A stretch of 64,000 bases of DNA from Christensenellaceae bacterium. GTDB lineage: Bacteria > Bacillota > Clostridia > Christensenellales > CAG-138. The notes under the pieces were generated by a model. The model saw only the letters and a program-made list of their open reading frames with translations. It did not search any database and was not told the DNA's origin. The DNA lies in contig OY762278.1 of assembly GCA_963665515.1 (NCBI GenBank), positions 2,862,414-2,926,413 of the forward strand, written 5' to 3'. This document shows, in pieces, positions 21,802-34,468 of this stretch (the stretch's first letter is position 1; each line of letters begins with the position of its first letter). The position numbers were made by a program, and so were the translations under genes.

Positions 21802-22659
21802 TTATCTTCGACCACGGTCGTTTGTCGGGCGAAGCACCTGCATATGCGGGCGGCTATCGTGCTGCGATGCTTCGTTCTTAGGGTCCTCGCCATTGCGCAA
21901 CTGATTGATCAATGCATATGCTTCTGCAAACGTATCTGCAAGGCGGTCCGCTATCTGCGGCGGTATACTTGCCTGCTGCGGCGGCTCAGGAGACTGTTGC
22001 CTTACATATGTCTCGCGTACCGGCGTATGATCGCTCTCAGCGCGGCCTTCTACCGTCGCCATGTATGCATAGTTCCTCGCCTCGTCGCGCTCGGCAGTCA
22101 GGCGCATACTTTCCGCACGCAGTCGGCTGATCTCTTCGCGCATATGCGCGTTTTCGTCCACAAGATGTGCGCGCTCCTTTTTCCATGTCTCTCCGACGCT
22201 GGCTGCCTGAGACAGCGCGTTTCTTAGTTGCTGAACCTCGCGCTCAAGCGTCTGCACGCGTTCGTTTGCCACACGAACGCCGTCCACCGCGCCACGCAAC
22301 CGTTCATAACCTTGCCGCTCGCTCTCGTACTTTTTAATATGCGTAAGCAGCGTAGCGATCTTTTCACCCGCAGCGTTCAATTCAGCTTCTTTTTGTGAAA
22401 TTGTTTCTTTAAGCGTATTCACCGCACAGTTGCGCGCTTCGACTTCGCTTTTAATGGATTCAATCTGATCAAGCAGGGATTCCTGCTCCTGCCTTGCCGC
22501 CTTCGTCTGCTGGGCGGAAGCCATCTTCATTTCATCCAGGCATTCGCGCACTTCATCCGGGTCGTAGCCGTGCAGCACGCGGTGAAAGCGCGCGTCCGCA
22601 TCCATGCGGCTGCGCAGCGCGTCCACGCCTCTATTTCGGTTGTCCCGTTCGCTGCCCAT
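21802..22659 (-). CDS. DivIVA-domain coiled-coil protein
   Basis: 285 aa. N-terminal F.RVLHGYDPDEVRECLDEM matches the DivIVA-type F..x.RGYdxxEVdxFL motif, followed by a long heptad-rich region. The start overlaps the DUF192 stop (TAATG). Confidence 0.65.
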   Translation of the reverse strand: MGSERDNRNRGVDALRSRMDADARFHRVLHGYDPDEVRECLDEMKMASAQQTKAARQEQESLLDQIESIKSEVEARNCAVNTLKETISQKEAELNAAGEKIATLLTHIKKYESERQGYERLRGAVDGVRVANERVQTLEREVQQLRNALSQAASVGETWKKERAHLVDENAHMREEISRLRAESMRLTAERDEARNYAYMATVEGRAESDHTPVRETYVRQQSPEPPQQASIPPQIADRLADTFAEAYALINQLRNGEDPKNEASQHDSRPHMQVLRPTNDRGRR

Positions 22660-22997
22660 TACACTACCTCCAGTCGGTCTCCTTTGTGTATGCCTTTTGT
22701 GCTTGCAGTTCCCGCTTGTAGCTCCAGTACGCTCCTTGCGCCTCGCTGTCCCGGCCAGGCTTTCCCTTGCGGCAACGCTTCGTCCACGCGCAGCACATAG
22801 CCTGCTTTGTCCAGATAGACCGCATCGATCGCATATGCCATCCCGAACGTATGAATGCTGCTGCAGGGCGTTAAAATCAGCCCTTCGTCTTTATGCAGTT
22901 CCCGTCCGAGCAATCCACGCAATCGGAGAAAATAGCGATTGGCATTCATTGCCCTTATAAGTGTTTCTCCATCCTTTTTGATCGCGACCGTATTCAT
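22659..22997 (-). CDS. DUF192-family protein
   Basis: 112 aa. RLRGLLGR......GLIL.PC.SIHTFGM...IDAV.LD pattern is typical of DUF192. Confidence 0.7.
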   Translation of the reverse strand: MNTVAIKKDGETLIRAMNANRYFLRLRGLLGRELHKDEGLILTPCSSIHTFGMAYAIDAVYLDKAGYVLRVDEALPQGKAWPGQRGARSVLELQAGTASTKGIHKGDRLEVV

Positions 22998-23047
22998 TTT
23001 CCTAAATCCTTTTCATCTTCCTTGCCATTTTTAAATTACTTCATGTA

Positions 23048-23983
23048 TTACCTAAACGTAGCTATCAGGTTGACCGCAGCGGGTCCCAGCAGAATGATGA
23101 AAATAACCGGAAAGATGAACATAACCGTTGGTAACATGATTTTAATCGGTGCTTTTGCAGCCTTCGCCTGAATACGCTGTTTGCGCTCGACGCGTAACCG
23201 CTCGGATTGTGTGCTGAGTACGCTTTTAACCGACACGCCGAGTTGTTCTGCCTGTAATAAAGCGGTAACGAACGCTGAAAGCTGTTTAACATCGCAACGA
23301 TCTGCCATTTCCTTCAGCGCAACCTTGCGCGGAACACCCATCTGCACTTCCTTAATCGCGCTGTTGAGTTCCGATAAAACGACAGATTTATTTTTAGAAT
23401 ACTGTCTGACAATAGCAGCGTCAAGACCCAAACCGGCTTCTACACTAACTACCAGTAAATCCATCACATCGGGCAGGTCACGCACTATCATTCCCTTTCT
23501 GCGTTTAACCCGGCCCCTTAAGTAATAGGTAGCCCCAAAGACCGGAATGCAGACCATTACAAGCATGATTAGAACTTTGAATATCTGATCGATCGGCAGT
23601 ACGAAATAGAGAATTGCCGCGCCTGCGAGAAAAATCAAAGCAAGCATGCTTTTGATAAACGAAAACTCCTGAACGCTCAAATTGACCCCGGCGCTTTTCA
23701 GTTGTTTTCCGAGCTTTACATTTGATTTGCTTGGCCCGGGAGAACGACTCTTACCGGCAAGCCGTTTGACACGTTCGGAAATTTTTTTGACAGTTGGGCG
23801 CAGAACACGTTCCGAGAACGATTTTTTTAGTTCGTCATCGCTATAGGAGCGTTCCGTATCCTTTACTTGCGCATAGCGGCGCCGCATTGCGTCGCCTTTA
23901 CGACCGAGACCGTTAAGCAATGCAATGAAGATAAAAAATACTGCTGCGGTACACGCAAGCACTACCAGCCGCATCAAAAACAC
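23048..23983 (-). CDS. tadC: Tad pilus inner-membrane platform protein TadC (type II secretion F family)
   Basis: 311 aa, polytopic, with a T2SSF-like cytoplasmic domain. Sits after tadB and cpaF. Confidence 0.8.
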   Translation of the reverse strand: MFLMRLVVLACTAAVFFIFIALLNGLGRKGDAMRRRYAQVKDTERSYSDDELKKSFSERVLRPTVKKISERVKRLAGKSRSPGPSKSNVKLGKQLKSAGVNLSVQEFSFIKSMLALIFLAGAAILYFVLPIDQIFKVLIMLVMVCIPVFGATYYLRGRVKRRKGMIVRDLPDVMDLLVVSVEAGLGLDAAIVRQYSKNKSVVLSELNSAIKEVQMGVPRKVALKEMADRCDVKQLSAFVTALLQAEQLGVSVKSVLSTQSERLRVERKQRIQAKAAKAPIKIMLPTVMFIFPVIFIILLGPAAVNLIATFR

Positions 23984-24065
23984 TCCTTTCCAATTCTGTT
24001 GCCCCTACGTGTTGGGTTTTACTTTGGGTTAATTTCAATGCGTGCTTTCACTGCAAGCACGGTTG

Positions 24066-24995
24066 CTACATCTTTATATTCACAATCTTGCGGACAATCA
24101 AGAATCCAATTGTTTCAAGCACGACCGAAATGATCAGCATGATGCGACCTTCTTGTGTCGTAAAAAACATGTCGATATAGCCAGGGTTAATAAACATCAG
24201 CAGGACAATAATGAAAATCGGCAGCGCTCCGACAATGTATCCGCTGAGCATTCCTGCGGCGGTTAGGGTTTTCACCTCTCCGCGCAATTGAATTCGTTGA
24301 TTGATCGTATCGGATATATTCTCCAGAATAATCGCAAGGTTGCCGCCAATCTGCCGTTGAATAACAACAGCCGAGCACATTAAATCCAAGTCCTGGTTCT
24401 TCGTCCGCTCAACAAGACGATTCAGGCTTTGTTCCAACGGCATTCCGAGTTGCGTCTCGCGATACACGCGCATGAATTCACGTGAAATTGGTTCTTCCAT
24501 CTCCTCTGCCACATTCTTCAACGCTGTTTGAAACGAGAGGCCTGCGCGCAATGCGTTGCAGATAATGTTCATCGCATCGGATAATTGCTTACCCAACATA
24601 CCCAGTCGGCGGTTGCGCTTGATGACCACAAATCCGATCGGTGCGGCAGCACCAACGATTACCAGACCGATAGATAGGCTCATCGGCGCGCCAAGGAACA
24701 AAGCGGAAGCTGGTATAACTGCGCTAGAAATTACCCAAATCGTGATGAATTCTTCAGCGCGAAGCGCGATGCCTGCGACATAAAGTTCATCTGCAATTTT
24801 ATCTAACCTGTGTAGGCGGGCGCGATTGTTTTTTGTTCGGCTTTTTCGAGTTCTCGTGGTTTCCAGGTTTGTATCGAAAAACGACCGCACTCGTTTTTCC
24901 AAAGCTCGTTCATGTTTCGTGTAAAGCATTGCAACGATATAAAACATAAAATATGCCGCACAAGCAAATACGATGATTAAAATCGTTCTGATCAT
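24066..24995 (-). CDS. tadB: Tad pilus inner-membrane platform protein TadB (type II secretion F family)
   Basis: 309 aa, T2SSF-like. Directly downstream of the CpaF ATPase. Confidence 0.8.
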   Translation of the reverse strand: MIRTILIIVFACAAYFMFYIVAMLYTKHERALEKRVRSFFDTNLETTRTRKSRTKNNRARLHRLDKIADELYVAGIALRAEEFITIWVISSAVIPASALFLGAPMSLSIGLVIVGAAAPIGFVVIKRNRRLGMLGKQLSDAMNIICNALRAGLSFQTALKNVAEEMEEPISREFMRVYRETQLGMPLEQSLNRLVERTKNQDLDLMCSAVVIQRQIGGNLAIILENISDTINQRIQLRGEVKTLTAAGMLSGYIVGALPIFIIVLLMFINPGYIDMFFTTQEGRIMLIISVVLETIGFLIVRKIVNIKM

Positions 24996-25049
24996 TCGAA
25001 TCCCCGCCTCCTTTCCTGTCTGTCATATTAAAAGTCCATATTTACTTGG

Positions 25050-26357
25050 TCATACAAACCATTCATCTTTAACACCTGCGCCGCCCGCAGAGAGCTTATC
25101 GCAGCAGTGCGGTTTGATTCCGGTTGGTTTAAAGCGCCCTTGTGTGCGTCCGTCGCCTAGATCGAATTTGAAAATTTCCTGGGTAACGATCACGTCGCCT
25201 TCCATGCCAAGCACTTCGCTGATGCTGGTCACTTTGCGTGTGCCGTCGCGCATACGTGACTGCTGAACAATGATGTCGATTGCAGACGCAATCTGCTGAC
25301 GGATTGCCGGTATCGGCAAGTTCATACCCGCCATGAGCACCATGGTTTCCAGCCGGGACAACATGTCGCGCGTTGAGTTTGCATGTCCCGTTGTCATGGA
25401 TCCGTCATGTCCTGTGTTCATCGCCTGCAACATGTCCAGTGCTTCGCCGCCGCGCACCTCGCCGACGACAATACGATCGGGACGCATACGCAAAGCATTT
25501 CGCACAAGGTCGCGGATCGCAATCTGCCCCGTTCCTTCAAGATTTGCCGGGCGGGACTCCAGAGTTAACACGTGTTGCTGTTGCAGTTGAATTTCGGCAG
25601 CGTCCTCAATTGTAATGATGCGCTCATTATGCGGAATGTAGGCCGAGAGCACATTCAGAAGCGTCGTTTTGCCACTGCCGGTTCCGCCGGAAATAACGAC
25701 GTTCAGTCGTCCTTTTACGCAGGCCTCGAGGAACGAAGCCATTTTAAAAGTCAAGCTGCCGAAACTGATCAGGTTTTCAACGGTCAGTGGGCTCTTTGAA
25801 AATTTACGTATCGTCAGCAGCGGTCCTTTGAGCGAAAGCGGCGGAATTACTGCATTGACACGCGAACCGTCGGCAAGACGTGCGTCCACCATTGGGTTTG
25901 CTTCATCGATGTGACGGCCAAGCGGGGATACGATTCGATCAATGACGTTGAGCAGCTGTTCGTCGTCAAAAAACGTTACGTCGCTCAAAACGAGTTTGCC
26001 CTTACGCTCAATAAACACCTGCTTTGCGCCGTTGACCATGATTTCGCTGATGGAATCGTCCATCAACAGTCGTTCCAGTGGGCCAAGACCGCGAATTGAA
26101 TCATAGATCTCCCCCGCAATTCGCATGCGCTCCGGGCGAGCCATGTTCGCCGCCTGTGTCTCCAATACGGCCTCGATAATCGCGCGCGTATCCGCTTCGT
26201 TCGTAACGCCGCCGTGCTTCTCCTCACGCTTGTTGAGCATTTCGACGGCAGTAAGATGTACACGGTCACGAAGTGCGGAAAGCTCATCGATTTCCGCCGA
26301 GGCCGCCGCAGTGGCTGCCGCCAGTGTTTTTTTGTCAAGCCGTTCCAGCAGTCCCAC
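25050..26357 (-). CDS. cpaF: CpaF/TadA secretion ATPase
   Basis: 435 aa. Walker A GGTGSGKTTLLN, Asp/His boxes (ITIEDAAE, GHDGSMTTGHANS) of the VirB11/CpaF family. Confidence 0.9.
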   Translation of the reverse strand: MGLLERLDKKTLAAATAAASAEIDELSALRDRVHLTAVEMLNKREEKHGGVTNEADTRAIIEAVLETQAANMARPERMRIAGEIYDSIRGLGPLERLLMDDSISEIMVNGAKQVFIERKGKLVLSDVTFFDDEQLLNVIDRIVSPLGRHIDEANPMVDARLADGSRVNAVIPPLSLKGPLLTIRKFSKSPLTVENLISFGSLTFKMASFLEACVKGRLNVVISGGTGSGKTTLLNVLSAYIPHNERIITIEDAAEIQLQQQHVLTLESRPANLEGTGQIAIRDLVRNALRMRPDRIVVGEVRGGEALDMLQAMNTGHDGSMTTGHANSTRDMLSRLETMVLMAGMNLPIPAIRQQIASAIDIIVQQSRMRDGTRKVTSISEVLGMEGDVIVTQEIFKFDLGDGRTQGRFKPTGIKPHCCDKLSAGGAGVKDEWFV

Positions 26358-26360
26358 GCG

Positions 26361-27488
26361 TTATGCCCTCCTCGTTAAAAATTTTGCATACTTTAAAATT
26401 GCACCCGACGCCTTTGATCGCGGCGCACAGGAAATCATCGGAATCCCGCGATTGATTGCGGTGACGGCGGCTTTCGGATCGTTTGGAATCACCAGTGCCG
26501 GTGAACAATCCAAAAGATTCGCAACGTCTTTGATCTTAATGTTGCTCATTCCATCGCGATTGACGACAACTTTAATCTTGTCGCCAAGGTTCAGCGCTTC
26601 CAGTATCTTCATGCTGCGCTTTGCGTCATGAAGCGTAGCAATATCTTCATTCACAACGAAATAGATCGTGTCCGTCATTTCAAAGGCGGCGACCGAGCAA
26701 TCGTTGAGCGTTACGCCCATATCAAGGACGATATAGTCAAATTCCGTGCGAAGCGTTGAAAGTATCGTCTCTATATGCTCCGGCTTGACCAACTCTGCAT
26801 ACTCCGGTGAGCTGCTTGCAAGAAGCACCATAACACCGCTGTAGTGTCGAATTAAGTATGTCTTGAGCGTTGCCAGTTCAAAGTTGTTTTCTTCAACCAT
26901 GTCTGCAAGCGTATCACCCTTTGGTATGTCAAGGAAAACACCTATATCGCCAAACTGGAGGTTCAGGTCGATCAAAGCTACCTTTTTGTTTTGCGCGGCA
27001 AGTGCGCAGGCCATGTTGACCGCAAGCGTTGATTTCCCAACGCCGCCTTTTGCCGAGAAAAACTGAATGATTCGCGAATCATAGGTCGCAATTTTTGCAA
27101 TGCTGCTACGGCGATATTGATCACGGCTTGCGGATGTGATGATGGCGGTCTTGATTTCGTCGACCGGGCTGTTCATGTCGATCACGCGAGCAATACCGCA
27201 TTCCATCGCCTGCATAACGTCTTCCGGCGAAGGTTTCGGCGTCATGAGCAGGATCGTCACATCGCTGCGGCTTGTATACATGCGTTCTGCAAAGTCGAAC
27301 TCGACTTCCGGAATAGCCGTTGTGCATAGCAACAGCACATCAGCAGGCTGTGTACCCGCTTTCTTCAGGCCGTCCTTGTCGGGTTTCAGGGAGCAGACGA
27401 TGCGGAGCGCTTCATCCTGCAACAAGCCGGCCGCTGTTCTTTTGTCATCCGCGGCAAATGCCGCAAGCATGATTCGTACGCTATCCAT
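26361..27488 (-). CDS. cpaE: CpaE/TadZ-like pilus assembly ATPase (receiver-like N-domain plus ParA/MinD ATPase)
   Basis: 375 aa. Deviant Walker A FFSAKGGVGKST. N-terminal CheY-like fold region. Confidence 0.8.
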   Translation of the reverse strand: MDSVRIMLAAFAADDKRTAAGLLQDEALRIVCSLKPDKDGLKKAGTQPADVLLLCTTAIPEVEFDFAERMYTSRSDVTILLMTPKPSPEDVMQAMECGIARVIDMNSPVDEIKTAIITSASRDQYRRSSIAKIATYDSRIIQFFSAKGGVGKSTLAVNMACALAAQNKKVALIDLNLQFGDIGVFLDIPKGDTLADMVEENNFELATLKTYLIRHYSGVMVLLASSSPEYAELVKPEHIETILSTLRTEFDYIVLDMGVTLNDCSVAAFEMTDTIYFVVNEDIATLHDAKRSMKILEALNLGDKIKVVVNRDGMSNIKIKDVANLLDCSPALVIPNDPKAAVTAINRGIPMISCAPRSKASGAILKYAKFLTRRA

Positions 27489-27500
27489 CTTTCGTCCCCT

Positions 27501-28277
27501 TTAGCCCGCTTCTTCCAACAAGGAATCATTGATGATCGGATCTTCTGTATTCGCTTCGTGATCACCGGACGCGCGAAGAACAATCGTAACAATACCGCTC
27601 TTTGCGCCCTGAATGACGCGCATTGCATCCTCCGGCGTTAACAAAAGGGTTATGCTGGAGTAGATTTCCGCTGTTGTTCCGTCTGCGCTGGCTGAATCCT
27701 TTAGTGACGTTCCAACAGCTGCAACGCATACATTCTGTGCAGCCACAACAGTCGTTCCTTGTTCTGTTTCCTCTTCTTCCGTTGTTCCATCGGTCGTTTC
27801 CGTAGTGGTAGTTTCTTCAGGATCATAAGTCGTTGTTGTGTACGCTAGCACGTCCACATAGTCACCACGCTGTACAAAGCCGGCGACACCGGACACCTCA
27901 TCCACTGATATTGTGACCGCACGCATGCCTTCCGGAATAATGTAACTCATGCCGCTGTCATCCTGACCTTGCTGCTTTAGCTTTGAAGGCAGAATCTCTT
28001 CACCAGCAACGATAAGCCCTTCGGTAACAAACCCGACTGCTTCGCTTACGGAATGCGCGGCCAAGGGATGCGAAGTGCCTTCCGGAACTTGAGTTAGGGT
28101 CAGCATGTCCGCCGTAATGACAGAATATGCGGGAATATCGACGGCCGCCACCAGTACGTCTTCATACACAACCTCGACCACCGTATCCTGTTCAAGATTG
28201 TCGAGATAAAAGTAGAGCAGTGCACCCGCGACAATTGCCATAATCAGTGCAAAAAGGATAACCTTTTTCATCCGCAT
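27501..28277 (-). CDS. cpaB: Flp pilus assembly protein CpaB/RcpC (SAF domain) with a Thr/Glu-rich insertion
   Basis: 258 aa. N-terminal TM, then VLVAAVDIPAYSVITADML (SAF-like). Low-complexity segment TTTTYDPEETTTTETTDGTTEEEETEQGTT. Confidence 0.75.
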   Translation of the reverse strand: MRMKKVILFALIMAIVAGALLYFYLDNLEQDTVVEVVYEDVLVAAVDIPAYSVITADMLTLTQVPEGTSHPLAAHSVSEAVGFVTEGLIVAGEEILPSKLKQQGQDDSGMSYIIPEGMRAVTISVDEVSGVAGFVQRGDYVDVLAYTTTTYDPEETTTTETTDGTTEEEETEQGTTVVAAQNVCVAAVGTSLKDSASADGTTAEIYSSITLLLTPEDAMRVIQGAKSGIVTIVLRASGDHEANTEDPIINDSLLEEAG

Positions 28278-28386
28278 TCCCTCCGTTCCATCGTTTCGGC
28301 AAACGTTTTATCCACTTGCCGTAATAAATTCCAACTGTTTATAATCAATGTCGGGCGGCTTTTTTCAGCCGCCCGTATTGTTTCGA

Positions 28387-29406
28387 TCACTTACTCAAAA
28401 CCAGGCTGTATACGCCGAAGCTTGGCGCAGTTCCAGTCAAGTCTCCATCCGCCGCGCCAATGTTCACCATGTTTACATAACTTCCGATGACGCAACCTTC
28501 ATCCACGTAGGTTGAATAGTCTTCCAAGACAAACGCCGCAAAGCCAACCACTTTTACGTATTTATGTTGGGCGTCAGTGTATGTAATAACCGGTATTTTC
28601 ATTACACGCGGACAGTCAGCCTCATAGTGCGCAATCGTGCATCCACCCATCGAAGGATAATGCGTGCATGAATTGTACCGGGTGGCAATTCCGGAAACGG
28701 TCGGACCGGTCATATTACCGTCTTCAACCGGGAGCACAGTCCCGATCGACAGTTTGCCTTCATATCCATTTGCCAGCCAGCTTGTGTAGTCGTTGGCGCC
28801 GCCGCCTTTCACGCCGTCGAGGTCAATCGCGCCAAATGCGCCGTCGACAACTTCCTCTTCGTTTGATCCATATTTCAAGATAGCATGCTGCGTTGAACCG
28901 CTTGCAATCATTTCTGAAAGTGTGCTTTCCTCAATGGAAAGCGGCACAAGGTCTGACAGCGCGGTGCACGGTACAACACGTGCCTGCGCCGCTCTGCTGA
29001 ACGAAATTTCCTCTATACCAAATACCTTTGCAAAATATGTTTCGCTTGTCGCCGCCATCGTAACATCGATGGAATGATATTTCCCGCCGCTGAGTTCACC
29101 AAGCACAACGGATGCGTTTTCCGGATCGTCCACACCGTTTTTGCCAAGGTACTCGCGGGCTATCGCCGTCGCTTCCACAACCGCCGTTGCATCCGTGCTT
29201 ATGATTGGAAGCTTTAACCCCGCCGCCATAACAGCCGCGTCAACCGCCGTTTGCGTTTGTGCCGTCTTTACATAAGCCGTGCCGAGGTCGGTCACCGTTG
29301 CCGTCATGCCGAGCAGCGCGGTCATGGCCAGCGCAACGATAATGATCGAATCGCCGCGTTCTTCTTTTTTTAATCGCCGGAGCAAATTCCGGAAAAAAAC
29401 TTTCAT
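28387..29406 (-). CDS. TadG-like/TadE-G-like pseudopilin-type assembly protein
   Basis: Start reassigned to MKVFFRNLL (ATG 29404-29406) behind a GGAGGG RBS. N-terminal ERGDSIIIVALAMTALLGM hydrophobic segment is typical of TadE/G-like proteins. Confidence 0.7.
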   Translation of the reverse strand: MKVFFRNLLRRLKKEERGDSIIIVALAMTALLGMTATVTDLGTAYVKTAQTQTAVDAAVMAAGLKLPIISTDATAVVEATAIAREYLGKNGVDDPENASVVLGELSGGKYHSIDVTMAATSETYFAKVFGIEEISFSRAAQARVVPCTALSDLVPLSIEESTLSEMIASGSTQHAILKYGSNEEEVVDGAFGAIDLDGVKGGGANDYTSWLANGYEGKLSIGTVLPVEDGNMTGPTVSGIATRYNSCTHYPSMGGCTIAHYEADCPRVMKIPVITYTDAQHKYVKVVGFAAFVLEDYSTYVDEGCVIGSYVNMVNIGAADGDLTGTAPSFGVYSLVLSK

Positions 29407-29485
29407 TGCAGCGTCCCTCCTTATGGACTTGCGGCAGTTCGCACTACCCCGGGAACACAAAAATCTAAATCATCTCGATGAGTCG

Positions 29486-29902
29486 CTAACTCATCTTCAT
29501 CGTACACTCCGCCTGCAGATGGAACACGCCGTCCGAAGTTAAAAACGCAGTCAGTGGCGTTATTGTCGGCAGGTCGTAGGTCGTAACAACCGTGATATCT
29601 CCCGATCGGAAGTTTGTGGCGTCTGAATACGTAACGGTGATGCCAAGTTCATTTGTCATATAGTCCGGCTTCATGCCGTTGATGCGCGCCGTCACGTCCG
29701 CCGTGTTAGTCGCGGCGCTGGTCGCTACAATTCCTGCGCGGACGCCTTCGCGCGTGATATTGTCCAGTACCAGTCGTGTTGAAGCCAGCCAGCCAAGCTC
29801 GATCATACCGCAGATTAAAAGCAAAAGCAGAGGGAGCGTAAGCGCTAGCTCGACCACCGACTGTCCGCTTTCGCGGCGCTTCTTCAATAATCTTTTTTGC
29901 AT
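29486..29902 (-). CDS. tadE: TadE-family pseudopilin
   Basis: Start reassigned to MQKRLLKKRRESGQSVVELALTLPLLLL (ATG 29900-29902, GGAGGGAG RBS). Has a G/xxxxE prepilin-like processing motif. Confidence 0.8.
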   Translation of the reverse strand: MQKRLLKKRRESGQSVVELALTLPLLLLLICGMIELGWLASTRLVLDNITREGVRAGIVATSAATNTADVTARINGMKPDYMTNELGITVTYSDATNFRSGDITVVTTYDLPTITPLTAFLTSDGVFHLQAECTMKMS

Positions 29903-29933
29903 CTTCCGTCGCTCCCTCCAAAGTTTGTTTTGT

Positions 29934-30095
29934 TCACTGTCCAAGCGTCAGCTTGTCGCCAACGCCGGAAAATAGTCCGGCCGCTTTGTTTCCGACCGCA
30001 GACAGGCCAATGACGACAACAGTCGCTACCAAAGCGATAATCAAGCCGTATTCCACCATGCCCTGTCCGTTTTCATTCATCAACAAGTGCATCAT
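29934..30095 (-). CDS. flp: Flp-family type IVb pilin, divergent copy (flp-1)
   Basis: 53 aa from MMHLLMNENGQGMVEYGLIIALVATVVVIGL. Contains the Flp G/xxxxEY motif plus a hydrophobic helix. Confidence 0.8.
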   Translation of the reverse strand: MMHLLMNENGQGMVEYGLIIALVATVVVIGLSAVGNKAAGLFSGVGDKLTLGQ

Positions 30096-30126
30096 ATCAG
30101 CAAAACCGCCTTTGCACTTACTCATG

Positions 30127-30297
30127 TTAGCCCGCGGTCGTGCCAAGAGTCAGTTTGTCGCTAATGCCGCTGAAGAGCGTGTTCGCCTTGCCGCCCAACG
30201 CAGTCAGGCCAACGATAACGACGACCGCCACCAGCGCGATGATAAGGCCGTATTCCACCATGCCCTGTCCGCTTTCGTTCTTCCAGAAGTTTTTCAT
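30127..30297 (-). CDS. flp: Flp-family pilin (flp-2)
   Basis: 56 aa: MKNFWKNESGQGMVEYGLIIALVAVVVIVGLTALGGKANTLFSGISDKLTLGTTAG. GGAGG RBS. Confidence 0.85.
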   Translation of the reverse strand: MKNFWKNESGQGMVEYGLIIALVAVVVIVGLTALGGKANTLFSGISDKLTLGTTAG

Positions 30298-30336
30298 TTT
30301 TATAGCCTCCATAAAGCTTAAATACACTTTTGTTCT

Positions 30337-30364
30337 CTGCATGGGATTTCATGCAGTTTTTTTT
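30337..30364. other. Stem-loop between flp-3 and flp-2 (CTGCATG/CATGCAG) with its T8 run on the + strand
   Basis: 7-bp stem at 30337-30356 and T8 at 30357-30364. In the minus-strand mRNA the hairpin is preceded by A8 and has no U tract after it. Confidence 0.6.
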
Positions 30365-30378
30365 GACGGCTTCGTCTA

Positions 30379-30540
30379 TCAGGAACCAAGTGTCAGCTTG
30401 TCGCTGATGCCACTGAAGAGCGTGTTCGCCTTGCCACCCAACGCCGTGAGACCGACGATAACGACGACCGCCACCAATGCGATGATCAGGCCATATTCCA
30501 CCATGCCCTGTCCGCTTTCGTTCTTCCAGAAGTTTTTCAT
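30379..30540 (-). CDS. flp: Flp-family pilin (flp-3), below the ORF-track size cut-off
   Basis: My translation gives MKNFWKNESGQGMVEYGLIIALVAVVVIVGLTALGGKANTLFSGISDKLTLGS (53 aa). GGAGG RBS at 30547-30551. Confidence 0.85.
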   Translation of the reverse strand: MKNFWKNESGQGMVEYGLIIALVAVVVIVGLTALGGKANTLFSGISDKLTLGS

Positions 30541-30578
30541 GATTTTAGCCTCCTAAAGCTTATCAATCAATTTGTTTT

Positions 30579-30620
30579 CCTGCGGATCGCGAACCGTTCG
30601 AGATCCGCAGGTTTTCTTTT
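30579..30620. other. Long stem-loop between flp-4 and flp-3 (CCTGCGGATC/GATCCGCAGG) with its T-rich run on the + strand
   Basis: 10-bp perfect stem (30579-30588 / 30602-30611), extendable through CGAAC/GTTCG. TTTTCTTTT follows on the + strand only. Confidence 0.6.
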
Positions 30621-30633
30621 AAGCGTTTTGTCG

Positions 30634-30807
30634 TCAGCCAGCAGTCGTGCCAAGTGTCAACTTGTCGCTGATGCCGCTGAAGAGCGTATTTGCCTTGCCG
30701 CCCAACGCAGTGAGGCCGACGATAACGACGACCGCTACCAGCGCGATGATCAGACCATATTCCACCATGCCCTGTCCACTTTCGTTTTTCCAGAATTTCT
30801 TCATCAT
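30634..30807 (-). CDS. flp: Flp-family pilin (flp-4), below the ORF-track size cut-off
   Basis: My translation gives MMKKFWKNESGQGMVEYGLIIALVAVVVIVGLTALGGKANTLFSGISDKLTLGTTAG (57 aa). AGGAGG RBS at 30814-30819. Confidence 0.85.
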   Translation of the reverse strand: MMKKFWKNESGQGMVEYGLIIALVAVVVIVGLTALGGKANTLFSGISDKLTLGTTAG

Positions 30808-30972
30808 TCCATCCTCCTATTGAATTATTTTTTGGTTCGGCTTTCGCCTTTGGTTCAGGACGCTCATCGTCCCATGGGAGACTTTTATTAGGTTATGATG
30901 TTCTTTTGCGGACAAACCATCCATGTCCGCACTTCCAAACAGTTGTTGCAAAAAGCCAATCGCACGTTACCC

Positions 30973-31596
30973 TTAAATCGCCGACACAATAACAAGCGCG
31001 GCCGCTAAAAAAGGTCCCATCGGTATCATGGTCTTAAGCCGTTCCGCCACCGGTAAGCGCTGCTCAATGAGCAGATAAAGCAGGACAAACCCGCCCATGC
31101 AAACAATGGCGTACAAACTGCCGGAAAACCCGAGTGCAAATCCCATCGCCGCAGCAAGCTTTACATCACCGGCGCCAATTTTTTGTTTCCAAATACAAGG
31201 TACCAGGAAGGTGATAAAACAAGCGATAAATCCCAGCAGCGACGACCAGATTTGAAACGATATGACACCCGTGAGTCCGAACACAGCGGAAAGGATAATG
31301 ACCGCCATGACCAGCTCGTTCGGAATCACACGGTGTTTCGCGTCGATGTACGAAACGCTTGCGGCCACAAGGAGCACAAGCATCAAATACAACGCCCGCA
31401 AAGAAACGCCTGCACGCCATGCAATCAACCCGCCCGCTGCCGCCATGCATCCGAGCAGTACCCATTGCTGTTTGCGTTCCATCGCCGGATCCAGTCCGCG
31501 TTGCCTGAGCAGAAAGGCGCAGAGGAATTGCGCCGGAAAAAACAGCGCGGAACCGGCGGCCATGCCGGCGAGAATCAGTAGGAACGTGTTCAGCAT
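30973..31596 (-). CDS. tadV: Prepilin peptidase, A24 family (TadV/CpaA type, no methyltransferase domain)
   Basis: 207 aa, polytopic. Two catalytic-Asp contexts (YIDAKHRVIPNE and GAGDVKLAAAMG). GGAAGGAGGG RBS. Confidence 0.85.
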   Translation of the reverse strand: MLNTFLLILAGMAAGSALFFPAQFLCAFLLRQRGLDPAMERKQQWVLLGCMAAAGGLIAWRAGVSLRALYLMLVLLVAASVSYIDAKHRVIPNELVMAVIILSAVFGLTGVISFQIWSSLLGFIACFITFLVPCIWKQKIGAGDVKLAAAMGFALGFSGSLYAIVCMGGFVLLYLLIEQRLPVAERLKTMIPMGPFLAAALVIVSAI

Positions 31597-31663
31597 TTTT
31601 GTGCCCTCCTTCCGAGCGGGTGGTGATCACATTAGCGTTTCGCGATCCTTGCACGTTTTCACG

Positions 31664-31704
31664 AAATCAAAAAGCGGTTCGGATATCAATATACCCGAAC
31701 CGCT
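31664..31704 (-). terminator. Intrinsic terminator forming the expression platform of riboswitch 1, upstream of tadV
   Basis: 10-bp stem (31673-31682 / 31695-31704), 12-nt loop, then UUUUUGAUUU on the minus strand. It lies between the aptamer and the tadV start. Confidence 0.8.
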
Positions 31705-31809
31705 TGAACTATCTATAGACTGATAGTATCTTTCAGAAACGTTCGTCGCACCCGATTCTTTTTGAACCAGGCCGTTACGATTTGTTTCCTATTCTTTCAA
31801 AGCGTTCTT

Positions 31810-31900
31810 CATTCGGCAACTGGCTGCCATGGACGCAATAAACGTCTTTAGGCCCTATAGCTTTGCGACTACCGCTTTCACGGGGTGTGCTCTTAACATG
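31810..31900 (-). promoter_or_regulatory. c-di-GMP-I (GEMM-I) riboswitch aptamer 1, leader of the Tad pilus operon
   Basis: Minus strand reads GCACACCCCGUGAAAGCGGUAGUCGCAAAGCUAUAGGGCCUAAAGACGUUUAUUGCGUCCAUGGCAGCCAGUUGCCGAA. It has a GNRA-capped P1b hairpin, ACGCAAAGC-like core, GGCCUAA and a GCC.GUUGCCGAA 3' end, as in known GEMM-I RNAs such as Vc2. Confidence 0.8.
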
Positions 31901-31982
31901 GGAAGAACCATTTCTTTGATATTCAGTTGTAACTTCTTTATTCTTTTCGAAGATAAAGAAGCAAAAAGAAATTTTCCTGTAC

Positions 31983-34169: not shown

Positions 34170-34236
34170 TCTTAGTTCCTCCGCATTTTTTTGTGGTTTA
34201 TGGTTTGGGATCAGGAGCAACCACGCTTAGGCAATG

Positions 34237-34272
34237 AAAAAAGCAGCTTGCCTTTTGAATTGCCAAGCTGCC
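34237..34272 (-). terminator. Intrinsic terminator forming the expression platform of riboswitch 2
   Basis: 8-bp stem GCAGCUUG / CAAGCUGC followed by U6 on the minus strand, between the aptamer and the first gene. Confidence 0.75.
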
Positions 34273-34317
34273 AAATAGCGTATGCCGCGTTACGTAAACG
34301 TTGCGGTTGGACACTCG

Positions 34318-34412
34318 ATCGGCAACTGGCTACCATAAACGCTTTCTGATTCAGTGTGCGTTCTTAGGCCCTTTAGTTTTGCGTCGCCTGCTTTCACAGG
34401 TTTTGCCTTTTC
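34318..34412 (-). promoter_or_regulatory. c-di-GMP-I (GEMM-I) riboswitch aptamer 2
   Basis: Minus strand reads AAAAGGCAAAACCUGUGAAAGCAGGCGACGCAAAACUAAAGGGCCUAAGAACGCACACUGAAUCAGAAAGCGUUUAUGGUAGCCAGUUGCCGA. All hallmark GEMM-I blocks are present (GGCAAA, GNRA-capped hairpin, GACGCAAA, GGCCUAAG, GCCAGUUGCCGA). Confidence 0.85.
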
Positions 34413-34439
34413 GTGGGAGAGACTCCTAAACCTAGGCAT

Positions 34440-34468
34440 AATTTATCATACCCATTTGGGTATGTCAA
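34440..34468 (-). promoter_or_regulatory. Promoter of the riboswitch-2 operon (TTGACA-17-TAAATT) with an internal palindrome
   Basis: -35 TTGACA at 34463-34468 and -10 TAAATT at 34440-34445 (minus strand). The spacer contains TACCCA-nn-TGGGTA (34449-34462). Confidence 0.65.

Follow-up and report, generated by a model that had tools for sequence, protein, structure and literature searches.

Tad pili mediate attachment and colonisation. The Christensenellaceae-like Clostridia are mostly uncultured, and we know of no account of how their surface organelles are regulated. Here we report the analysis of a 64,000-nt stretch of the genome of a Christensenellaceae bacterium (assembly GCA_963665515.1, contig OY762278.1, positions 2,862,414 to 2,926,413 of the forward strand), referred to below as the window and numbered from its first letter, in which a Tad/Flp pilus locus on the minus strand is preceded by an RNA element with the fold of a class I riboswitch for cyclic di-GMP (c-di-GMP-I, also called GEMM-I; Rfam family RF01051). 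On balance, we consider this element to be a functional cyclic-dinucleotide riboswitch that controls the Tad/Flp genes by transcription termination, most likely as an OFF switch.

The Tad/Flp locus consists of open reading frames (ORFs) in the order tadV, four flp genes, tadE, a tadG-like gene, rcpC/cpaB, tadZ/cpaE, tadA/cpaF, tadB, tadC, a DUF192 gene and a gene for a coiled-coil protein. The initial annotation had described 13 genes from 31596 down to about 21800; the locus and its span (to 21802) hold, but the number of ORFs is 14. The start codon of tadV (ATG) lies at 31596, as had been proposed, and the gene (31596-30973, 207 aa) encodes an A24 prepilin peptidase (Peptidase_A24, E = 6e-15). 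Pfam scans of the locus gave matches to PF01478, PF04964 (four times), PF07811, PF13400, PF16976, PF00437 and PF00482 (twice). TadZ resembles ParA and has an N-terminal part like a receiver domain, and the same scans gave no match to a secretin among the proteins of the locus, as in Tad systems of the monoderm type.

Four matches in the window exceeded the Rfam gathering scores: two to RF01051, one to tRNA (21653-21581) and one to the molybdenum/tungsten cofactor (Moco) riboswitch. The RF01051 match next to tadV (31901-31812, minus strand; cmscan) has a score of 63.8 bits (E = 3.7e-10; curated gathering score, 35 bits) and covers positions 1-87 of the 87 positions of the covariance model, so that the GEMM-I-like aptamer proposed earlier at 31810-31900 is borne out by a significant hit. 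It had rightly been called the second riboswitch of its class, the other match being located at 34417-34318 on the same strand (69.8 bits), upstream of a gene cassette that ends with a HEPN gene. Hairpin 1 of the aptamer (GUGAAAGC) has a GAAA loop and thus a GNRA tetraloop, and hairpin 2 contains the corresponding receptor-like sequence CCUAAAG...CAUGG, which aligns to the consensus CUAAgg...cuAuGa. The three-way junction is closed by helix P1, in which CAUG is paired with CG-AA-UG and GUUCUU(C) with (G)AAGAAC.

The binding pocket has the standard A47 and C92 (Vc2 numbering), but position 20 is an A (31891) where the consensus has G (model position 11; local sequence ...UUAAG-A-GCACACC). The combination G20/A47/C92, which marks selectivity for c-di-GMP, is therefore incomplete, and the adenine at position 20 is that of aptamers for 3',3'-cGAMP (also written c-AMP-GMP; GEMM-Ib) or for both ligands. 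The numbering rests on the conserved A directly 3' of the hairpin-1 helix, which we take to be A47 of Vc2, and on the location of model position 11 directly 5' of the G-C pairs that close hairpin 1; together they equate model position 11 with G20 of Vc2. This mapping is backed by a related locus (L034), whose upstream aptamer belongs to the GGC variant (RF03167) and has G in the A47 column. Two positions in P2 of the window aptamer also depart from the consensus. In every structural feature tested, the tadV-proximal element is a member of the RF01051 family, except at the specificity position 20.

An intrinsic terminator is located between the aptamer and the start codon of tadV, as expected of an OFF platform, and 106 nt separate the end of the aptamer (31812) from its first base (31705), in agreement with the earlier estimate of about 105 nt. 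The hairpin had been described as a 10-bp stem at 31664-31704; it is a terminator, but a longer one, whose stem (31705-31672) comprises 15 perfect pairs (7 G-C) and carries a 4-nt AUUG loop, followed by UUUGAUUUCG at 31671-31662 (terminator scan). The hairpin folds at -23.3 kcal/mol, with a z score of -8.55 relative to shuffled sequences; the z score for folding of the whole leader is -4.6. An aptamer with its own intrinsic terminator directly upstream of a Tad/Flp operon is the transcription-attenuation layout that the initial annotation had recognised.

The strand that directly follows the aptamer (CCGAAUGAAGAAC GCUUUG) has two possible partners: GGUUCUUC, with which it extends P1, and CAAGC-G-GUUCGG in the 5' arm of the terminator, with which it would form an antiterminator. 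The antiterminator of the window pairs GAAC-GCUU(U)G with C(A)AGC-G-GUUC or, in an alternative register, CCGAA with UUCGG; the latter, which uses the pocket-proximal strand, is the antiterminator in the minimum free energy (MFE) fold of the nascent transcript. The partial complementarity between CCGAAUGAAGAACGCU and AGCGGUUCGGG that had been noted before is thus real, part of a minimum-energy structure, and conserved. In the predicted folds, the antiterminator excludes both P1 and the terminator, which is the second property expected of an OFF platform.

According to the proposed mechanism, the two partners of the segment 3' of the pocket (CCGAAUG-AAGAAC-GCUUUG, 31816-31798) would be mutually exclusive. 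With ligand bound, the segment would pair back to the 5' flank (CAUG and GGUUCUUC) to give a long P1 helix, AAGCGGUUCGGGUAU would be free to form the 15-bp terminator, and RNA polymerase would stop at about 31665, before tadV. In the absence of ligand, the segment would pair forward with CAAGC-G-GUUC(GG), the start of the terminator 5' arm, and this antiterminator would allow transcription to proceed into tadV and the pilus genes.

Folding of the nascent transcript of the window gave -59.2 to -59.5 kcal/mol for the antiterminator and -57.5 kcal/mol when P1 was forced, and directional constraints gave -58.3 versus -58.9 kcal/mol; in both calculations the two states were nearly equal, which in the model is the look of a poised switch. 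After synthesis of the terminator 3' arm, the combination of P1 and terminator is much the more stable state (-82.0 versus -71.5). Taken together, these energies suggest that the outcome would be set by the structure that holds the 5' arm at the moment when the 3' arm emerges, and such dependence on timing is what a kinetically controlled riboswitch would require.

The conservation of the element was assessed with 80 Tad loci, one genome per species, which were gathered by a pattern scan for TadV, a protein with hundreds of homologues, and were all scanned with Rfam. The nearest loci belong to metagenome-assembled genomes labelled Christensenellaceae, Christensenella, Oscillospiraceae or Clostridia; the closest (L001) is 96% identical and is located on a 3.58-Mb chromosome. 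In about 57 of these 80 clostridial loci, the 350 nt or so upstream of tadV contain an aptamer of the c-di-GMP-I clan (two of them with the GGC variant, RF03167). Ordered by distance from the window, the loci with an aptamer near tadV are 40 of the 45 closest, 3 of the next 15 (mostly Eubacterium and Lachnospiraceae) and 14 of the 20 most distant. The association of RF01051-family aptamers with Tad operons is widespread in Clostridia and not peculiar to the window, and the recurrence of the layout of aptamer and terminator in dozens of independent genomes is far beyond chance. Searches for c-di-GMP riboswitches together with Tad/Flp pili or with Christensenella yielded nothing specific in the literature searched. 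In five distant loci of Lachnospiraceae or Oscillospiraceae (L062, L064, L066, L069, L071), the platform is compact, with a short terminator that abuts the aptamer (e.g. UACGG-CGUU-CCGUA-U7) and whose 3' arm repeats the P1 3' strand.

Comparison of 42 close leaders from the aptamer to the start codon revealed three elements that are conserved outside the Rfam model, namely GUUCUUC directly 5' of the aptamer, UGAAGAAC directly 3' of CCGAA, and CGGUUC in the 5' arm of a terminator, an arrangement found in 38 of the 42. GUUCUUC and GAAGAAC form a P1 extension of 6-7 bp, both strands of which are kept in nearly all leaders, with wobble or compensatory variants in L021 and L024 (UGUUUUU/GAGAGCA), L042, L002 and L033. 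GGUUC is found twice, once in the P1 5' strand and once in the 5' arm of the terminator, so that both are potential partners of GAAGAAC, and this three-way pairing constraint explains why such short elements are kept as sequence and not merely as structure. The bases after GAAGAAC vary by lineage, yet they match the bases just before CGGUUC within each lineage (GCUC/GAGC in L028; GCUCA/UGAGC in L037; GC-GCGUUUA/UAAACGC-A-GC in L005; GUUC...CAUUG/CAAUG...GAAC in L013; a 16-bp antiterminator in L011).

When the leaders were folded up to the terminator loop to represent the nascent transcript, about 30 of 38, the window among them, showed pairing of the tail that follows P1 with the 5' arm of the terminator. 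With directional constraints and without ligand, the antiterminator was favoured over the P1 state in 34 of the 38 leaders, by a median of 2.7 kcal/mol; in L011, the unconstrained MFE structure (-56.2 kcal/mol) is the antiterminator. The duplex of the P1 3' strand plus tail was more stable with the terminator 5' arm than with the 3' arm (means of -9.3 and -4.4 kcal/mol, respectively), the 5' arm being the better partner in 36 of 38 cases. Covariation was tested in 20 lineage representatives with the variable 14 nt of the tail and the 15 nt before GGUUC, from which the invariant core had been removed: the tails paired better with their own pre-terminator partner than with permuted ones (-5.8 versus -4.5 kcal/mol; permutation p = 0.003, Wilcoxon p = 0.011). 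A duplex test that included the conserved core gave only -9.7 versus -8.0 kcal/mol. From these calculations, the antiterminator is well supported, though not proven.

Two further pairings were considered and rejected. An extension of P1 into the tail (CAAAG/CUUUG in the window, ACAAAAC/GUUUUGU in L023) is not general (permutation p = 0.17), and a direct repeat of 18-20 nt in the linker (GAACGCUUUGAAAGAAUA at 31807-31790 and GAACGUUUCUGAAAGAUA at 31742-31725) as a second antiterminator strand is not kept in L002. The second copy of this repeat could pair with the terminator 5' arm and is kept in L001, which is probably incidental. The positions of the elements are listed in Table 1.

Table 1. 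Elements of the tadV leader, the pilus locus and the upstream riboswitch (RS1), in window coordinates.
Feature	Position	Strand	Remarks
RS1	34226..34468	-	Promoter-like site 34468-34440; G20 aptamer 34417-34318 (RF01051, 69.8 bits); terminator ~34262-34226
Weak extended -10-like sequence TGAATATC	31918..31925	-	Candidate own promoter, from sequence only
Extended P1, 5' strand GGUUCUUC	31902..31909	-	Complementary to GAAGAAC 31810-31804; in full-length MFE fold
Aptamer, c-di-GMP-I (GEMM-I) fold	31812..31901	-	RF01051; pocket A20 = 31891, A47 = 31864, C92 ~31816
Switching strand	31798..31810	-	GAAGAAC (P1-extension 3' strand) overlapping GAACGCUUUG (predicted antiterminator 5' strand)
Linker	31708..31789	-	Two hairpins (31789-31735, 31727-31708) in MFE folds; lineage-specific, found elsewhere only in L001 and L002
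Terminator 5' arm (C)AAGCGGUUCGGGUAU	31691..31706	-	First 10 nt CAAGCGGUUC = predicted antiterminator 3' strand
Terminator loop, 3' arm and U tract	31662..31690	-	Loop 31690-31687; 3' arm AUAUCCGAACCGCUU 31686-31672; U tract UUUGAUUUCG 31671-31662
tadV ribosome-binding site GGAAGGAGGG	31604..31613	-	Eight bases before ATG 31596
Tad/Flp (type IVc) locus	21802..31596	-	14 ORFs; Pfam scans

Ligand binding stabilises P1 in the c-di-GMP-I fold. Because the antiterminator uses the 3' strand of P1, the ligand would block the antiterminator and the terminator would form, which is the behaviour of an OFF switch. The initial annotation had left the choice between ON and OFF undecided; the pairing logic now points to OFF, and from secondary-structure logic and nearest-neighbour energies we regard termination in response to the ligand as quite probable. 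The same direction has been reported for all seven functional class I riboswitches of Clostridioides difficile, which are terminator OFF switches (PMC6366702).

Several points weigh against this interpretation. The conserved 7-bp core of the antiterminator is invariant and gives no covariation signal, and the advantage found for the variable part is small (1.3 kcal/mol). The window has a modest antiterminator of 8-9 bp, interrupted by a bulge, at about -9 kcal/mol; it closes a 100-nt multiloop, in competition with a terminator of -23 kcal/mol, and shares no more than 4 nt (GAAC) with P1, which lie at the outer end of the helix and far from the pocket. The adenine at position 20 leaves the identity of the ligand between c-di-GMP and cGAMP, and a scan for sigma-70 promoters found none between the HEPN gene and the aptamer. 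That c-di-GMP should repress an adhesive pilus would be contrary to the usual picture. Finally, the review that describes the C. difficile riboswitches warns against extrapolation of the direction, as the class I riboswitch Bc2 of Bacillus thuringiensis is an ON switch (PMC6366702).

The last two points would fit an ON switch, in which the ligand causes read-through and c-di-GMP induces the Tad pili. c-di-GMP usually promotes adherence, and the type IV pili of C. difficile are induced by it through a class II riboswitch upstream of pilA1 (PMC6366702). Moreover, P1 and the terminator coexist without ligand in the full-length MFE fold of the window, making termination the thermodynamic default. 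An ON design, however, needs the P1 3' strand either within the terminator or in a structure that sequesters the antiterminator, whereas in nearly all leaders this strand is complementary to the 5' arm of the terminator rather than to its 3' arm, and the terminator hairpin is complete in itself and lies at a distance from the aptamer. Nor did the linkers of the compared leaders, which are lineage-specific in length and sequence, contain a conserved third element that could act as an anti-antiterminator. We consider an ON switch unlikely.

It is far less probable still that the aptamer is unresponsive to ligand and that the hairpin attenuates constitutively or terminates the HEPN cassette upstream. 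That a ligand-contacting base (A20) and the two P2 positions deviate from the consensus could be read in this way, as could the failure to find a promoter between the cassette and the aptamer, but the aptamer matches the model over its full length with 29 bits above the gathering score, and aptamer, extended P1 and terminator have been kept together in dozens of genomes, with A20 in at least 15 distinct sequences. Assignment of the terminator to the HEPN cassette was rejected because it is found 3' of the aptamer in every locus, whatever the upstream gene.

With an OFF switch as the preferred reading, the ligand has to be considered. The initial annotation had the locus switched by c-di-GMP; the aptamer does belong to the RF01051 family, but its ligand is not secured because position 20 is A. 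For wild-type Vc2, binding of c-di-GMP is picomolar. One guanine of c-di-GMP is contacted by G20, and adenine is found at this position in variants that bind c-AMP-GMP or are bispecific (PMC6140456, PMC9481103); according to Breaker's group, the nucleotide at position 20 predicts specificity for c-di-GMP (G) or c-AMP-GMP (A) (PMC9481103). The values reported for c-di-GMP and cGAMP are 53 and 120 nM for Vc2 G20A, 30 and 463 nM for Cbe 1-2, a natural A20 aptamer of Clostridium beijerinckii, and 660 and 0.53 nM for Gs1761 of Geobacter (PMC6140456). A20 alone gives bispecificity, as shown by Vc2 G20A and Cbe 1-2 (PMC6140456).

An alignment of 41 aptamers showed A20 in 15 tadV-proximal aptamers (20 among all aptamers examined) and G in 16 others, mostly of the L003 clade; the conservation of A20 argues for selection and against decay. 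In the close loci with two aptamers, an upstream G20 is combined with a tadV-proximal A20 in 11 of 12 cases (L042 is G/G), and the distant tandems are G/G (L062, L069, L072, L076, L079) or A/A (L077). Because base 20 flips within one regulatory context, the A20 leaders may be expected to respond to c-di-GMP still, probably with lower affinity. Judged by its sequence, the window aptamer may bind c-di-GMP (probably with lower affinity), cGAMP, or both, and it is expected to bind c-di-GMP less tightly than the G20 riboswitch 2.4 kb upstream.

A doubtful alternative is an aptamer that is selective for cGAMP (GEMM-Ib type) and forms a two-ligand gate with the upstream G20 riboswitch. It would account for adenine at the very nucleotide that separates c-AMP-GMP aptamers from c-di-GMP aptamers (PMC6140456, PMC9481103), for the recurrent order of G20 and A20 in the close two-aptamer loci, and for the presence of an intact gene for an HD-GYP phosphodiesterase between both aptamers. 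A20 is, however, insufficient for such selectivity, as Vc2 G20A binds both ligands and Cbe 1-2 prefers c-di-GMP (PMC6140456). Orthologous Tad leaders of sister lineages carry G20, the distant tandems have the same base in both aptamers, and neither a GGDEF nor a CD-NTase gene was found among the roughly 60 ORFs of the window, which has little bearing on the rest of the genome.

The upstream riboswitch RS1 has a good promoter-like site (TTGACA-17-TAAATT) in front of its aptamer, and the 5' arm of its terminator (UUGGCAGCUUGGC) is complementary to the 3' part of the aptamer (GCCAGUUGCCGA), with covariation in L045 (UCGGCAGUCUGGC); from this pairing, RS1 also looks like an OFF layout. It precedes a cassette of four genes (34220-31983, minus strand) that encode a protein of 142 aa without an assigned family, an MNT-like nucleotidyltransferase of 113 aa, an HD-GYP protein of 305 aa in which the HD and HHERLDGSGYP motifs are intact, and a HEPN protein of 152 aa. 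It is unusual for an HD-GYP gene to be located between the members of an MNT/HEPN pair. Two aptamers flank the same cassette in L001, L040, L034, L042, L072 and L076, and part of it in L004, L033, L035, L036 and L039. By comparison, L045 (2500-3010), L013 (2342-2834), L014, L018 and L037 (2206-2759) have no gene between two complete riboswitches, each with its terminator, in one 5' untranslated region, which suggests either insertion of the window's cassette into an ancestral tandem or its loss from the L045, L013 and L037 relatives. Upstream aptamers of the GGC variant (RF03167, G at position 47) were found in L034 (316-401), L072 (388-471) and L057 (867-948).

Riboswitch control of an enzyme that degrades cyclic dinucleotides has been described as rare. 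If RS1 is an OFF switch, its control of the HD-GYP gene would give positive feedback. The two riboswitches in series might constitute, in Christensenellales-like Clostridia, a natural two-input gate, with c-di-GMP sensed by RS1 and cGAMP by the tadV-proximal riboswitch, or sense c-di-GMP at two thresholds, a proposal that we make only tentatively. If both were OFF switches, a two-ligand gate would restrict Tad expression to conditions in which c-di-GMP and cGAMP are both low, and the pili and the phosphodiesterase would be made only at low levels of the messenger(s). Signalling by cGAMP riboswitches would then extend to Gram-positive anaerobes, and the c-di-GMP/cGAMP pair would join the tandem logic gates.

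The tadV-proximal riboswitch may be reached by read-through from the RS1 operon, since the stop codon of the HEPN gene is only 82 nt before the aptamer, the hairpin in this intergenic region (31961-31933) is weak (-10.6 kcal/mol, z = -1.5) and without a U tract, and no consensus promoter was found in the region; Tad expression would in this case require passage through both riboswitches. A promoter of its own is possible, as judged from the extended -10-like TGAATATC and a conserved upstream motif, (GCAC)cTTGAyA-N5-nATAt, which is found 10-30 nt upstream of the extended P1 in most loci (about 31940-31910, minus strand, in the window). The spacing of this motif fits neither sigma-70 nor sigma-54, and in L038 and L041 a clear sigma-70 promoter is located just upstream of it; the motif could be an operator, an unusual promoter or an RNA 5' end. 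A promoter-like TAGATA-16-TATATT inside the terminator (9 of 12 positions) is not kept beyond L001 and L002 and was taken as chance.

No consensus terminator was found on the minus strand between tadV and the terminator of the tRNA gene (21578-21555), and the promoter-like matches inside the Tad locus are only weak (9/12) and located between flp1 and flp2. Control of the whole locus (31596-21802) by the riboswitch is plausible on these grounds. Both flp1 and flp2 are followed by a strong hairpin that lacks a U tract (30609-30578 and 30356-30337, minus strand); these hairpins may act as partial attenuators or as stabilisers and so adjust how much pilin is made relative to the assembly machinery. 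The region directly 3' of the Tad locus and the tRNA gene (20942-16176, minus strand) encodes a 696-aa leucine-rich repeat protein, two small proteins, one of them with a helix-turn-helix domain, and a 543-aa Ser/Thr kinase with leucine-rich repeats, which may cooperate with the pilus at the surface or in signalling. The Moco riboswitch (56601-56490, minus strand, 52.9 bits) is located upstream of genes for a PBP-like substrate-binding protein and an ABC transporter (55364-53999).

Among characterised systems, Cd1 of the C. difficile flgB operon, a terminator OFF switch, shares with the window element the RF01051 aptamer, the location in the leader of a large operon for a surface organelle, the clostridial host and a downstream Rho-independent terminator, and the predicted logic, premature termination in response to the ligand, is alike. 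The differences are the target, which is a Tad/Flp (type IVc) locus instead of flagella, the A at position 20 instead of G, and the 106-nt linker; in the window element, the function is a prediction. The GEMM-Ib riboswitches of Geobacter (Gs1761, Gm0970) and the A20 variants Cbe 1-2 and Vc2 G20A have the same fold and an adenine at the alpha-base contact. Cbe 1-2 also stems from a clostridial organism, whereas the Geobacter representatives are associated with genes of extracellular electron transfer and the window aptamer with Tad genes.

Tandem c-di-GMP-I riboswitches have been catalogued as 347 doublets and 12 triplets (PMC9481103). Such tandems, the Bc3-5 triple of B. thuringiensis among them, resemble the pair in the window, where two complete riboswitches follow one another on the same strand and each has a separate terminator. 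The window pair differs in that it is split by a four-gene cassette and has different bases at position 20 (G, then A), a combination that is absent from the tandem logic gates listed in PMC9481103. The riboswitch Cdi-2-4 of C. difficile pilA1 is likewise a cyclic-dinucleotide riboswitch that acts through a terminator on a type IV filament operon in Clostridia, but it belongs to class II instead of class I, controls a type IVa instead of a type IVc (Tad) pilus, and is experimentally an ON switch, in contrast to the OFF switch predicted here.

This study adds an association with Tad genes in Clostridia to the known targets of the c-di-GMP-I fold, together with a predicted negative sign of control and the combination of an A20 pocket and an upstream G20 riboswitch around an HD-GYP cassette. 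As judged from its presence in about 57 of the 80 loci, a cyclic-dinucleotide riboswitch appears to be the standard means by which many Clostridia control their Tad operons. Two predictions follow for the element in the window: the messenger would repress the Tad pili, opposite to the c-di-GMP-induced type IVa pili of C. difficile, and the tadV-proximal pocket would be of the cGAMP type, that of its upstream partner of the c-di-GMP type. If either prediction is true, the G20/A20 pair would offer a compact natural sensor pair for biosensor work, and the view of second-messenger control of adhesion in Gram-positive anaerobes would have to be revised.

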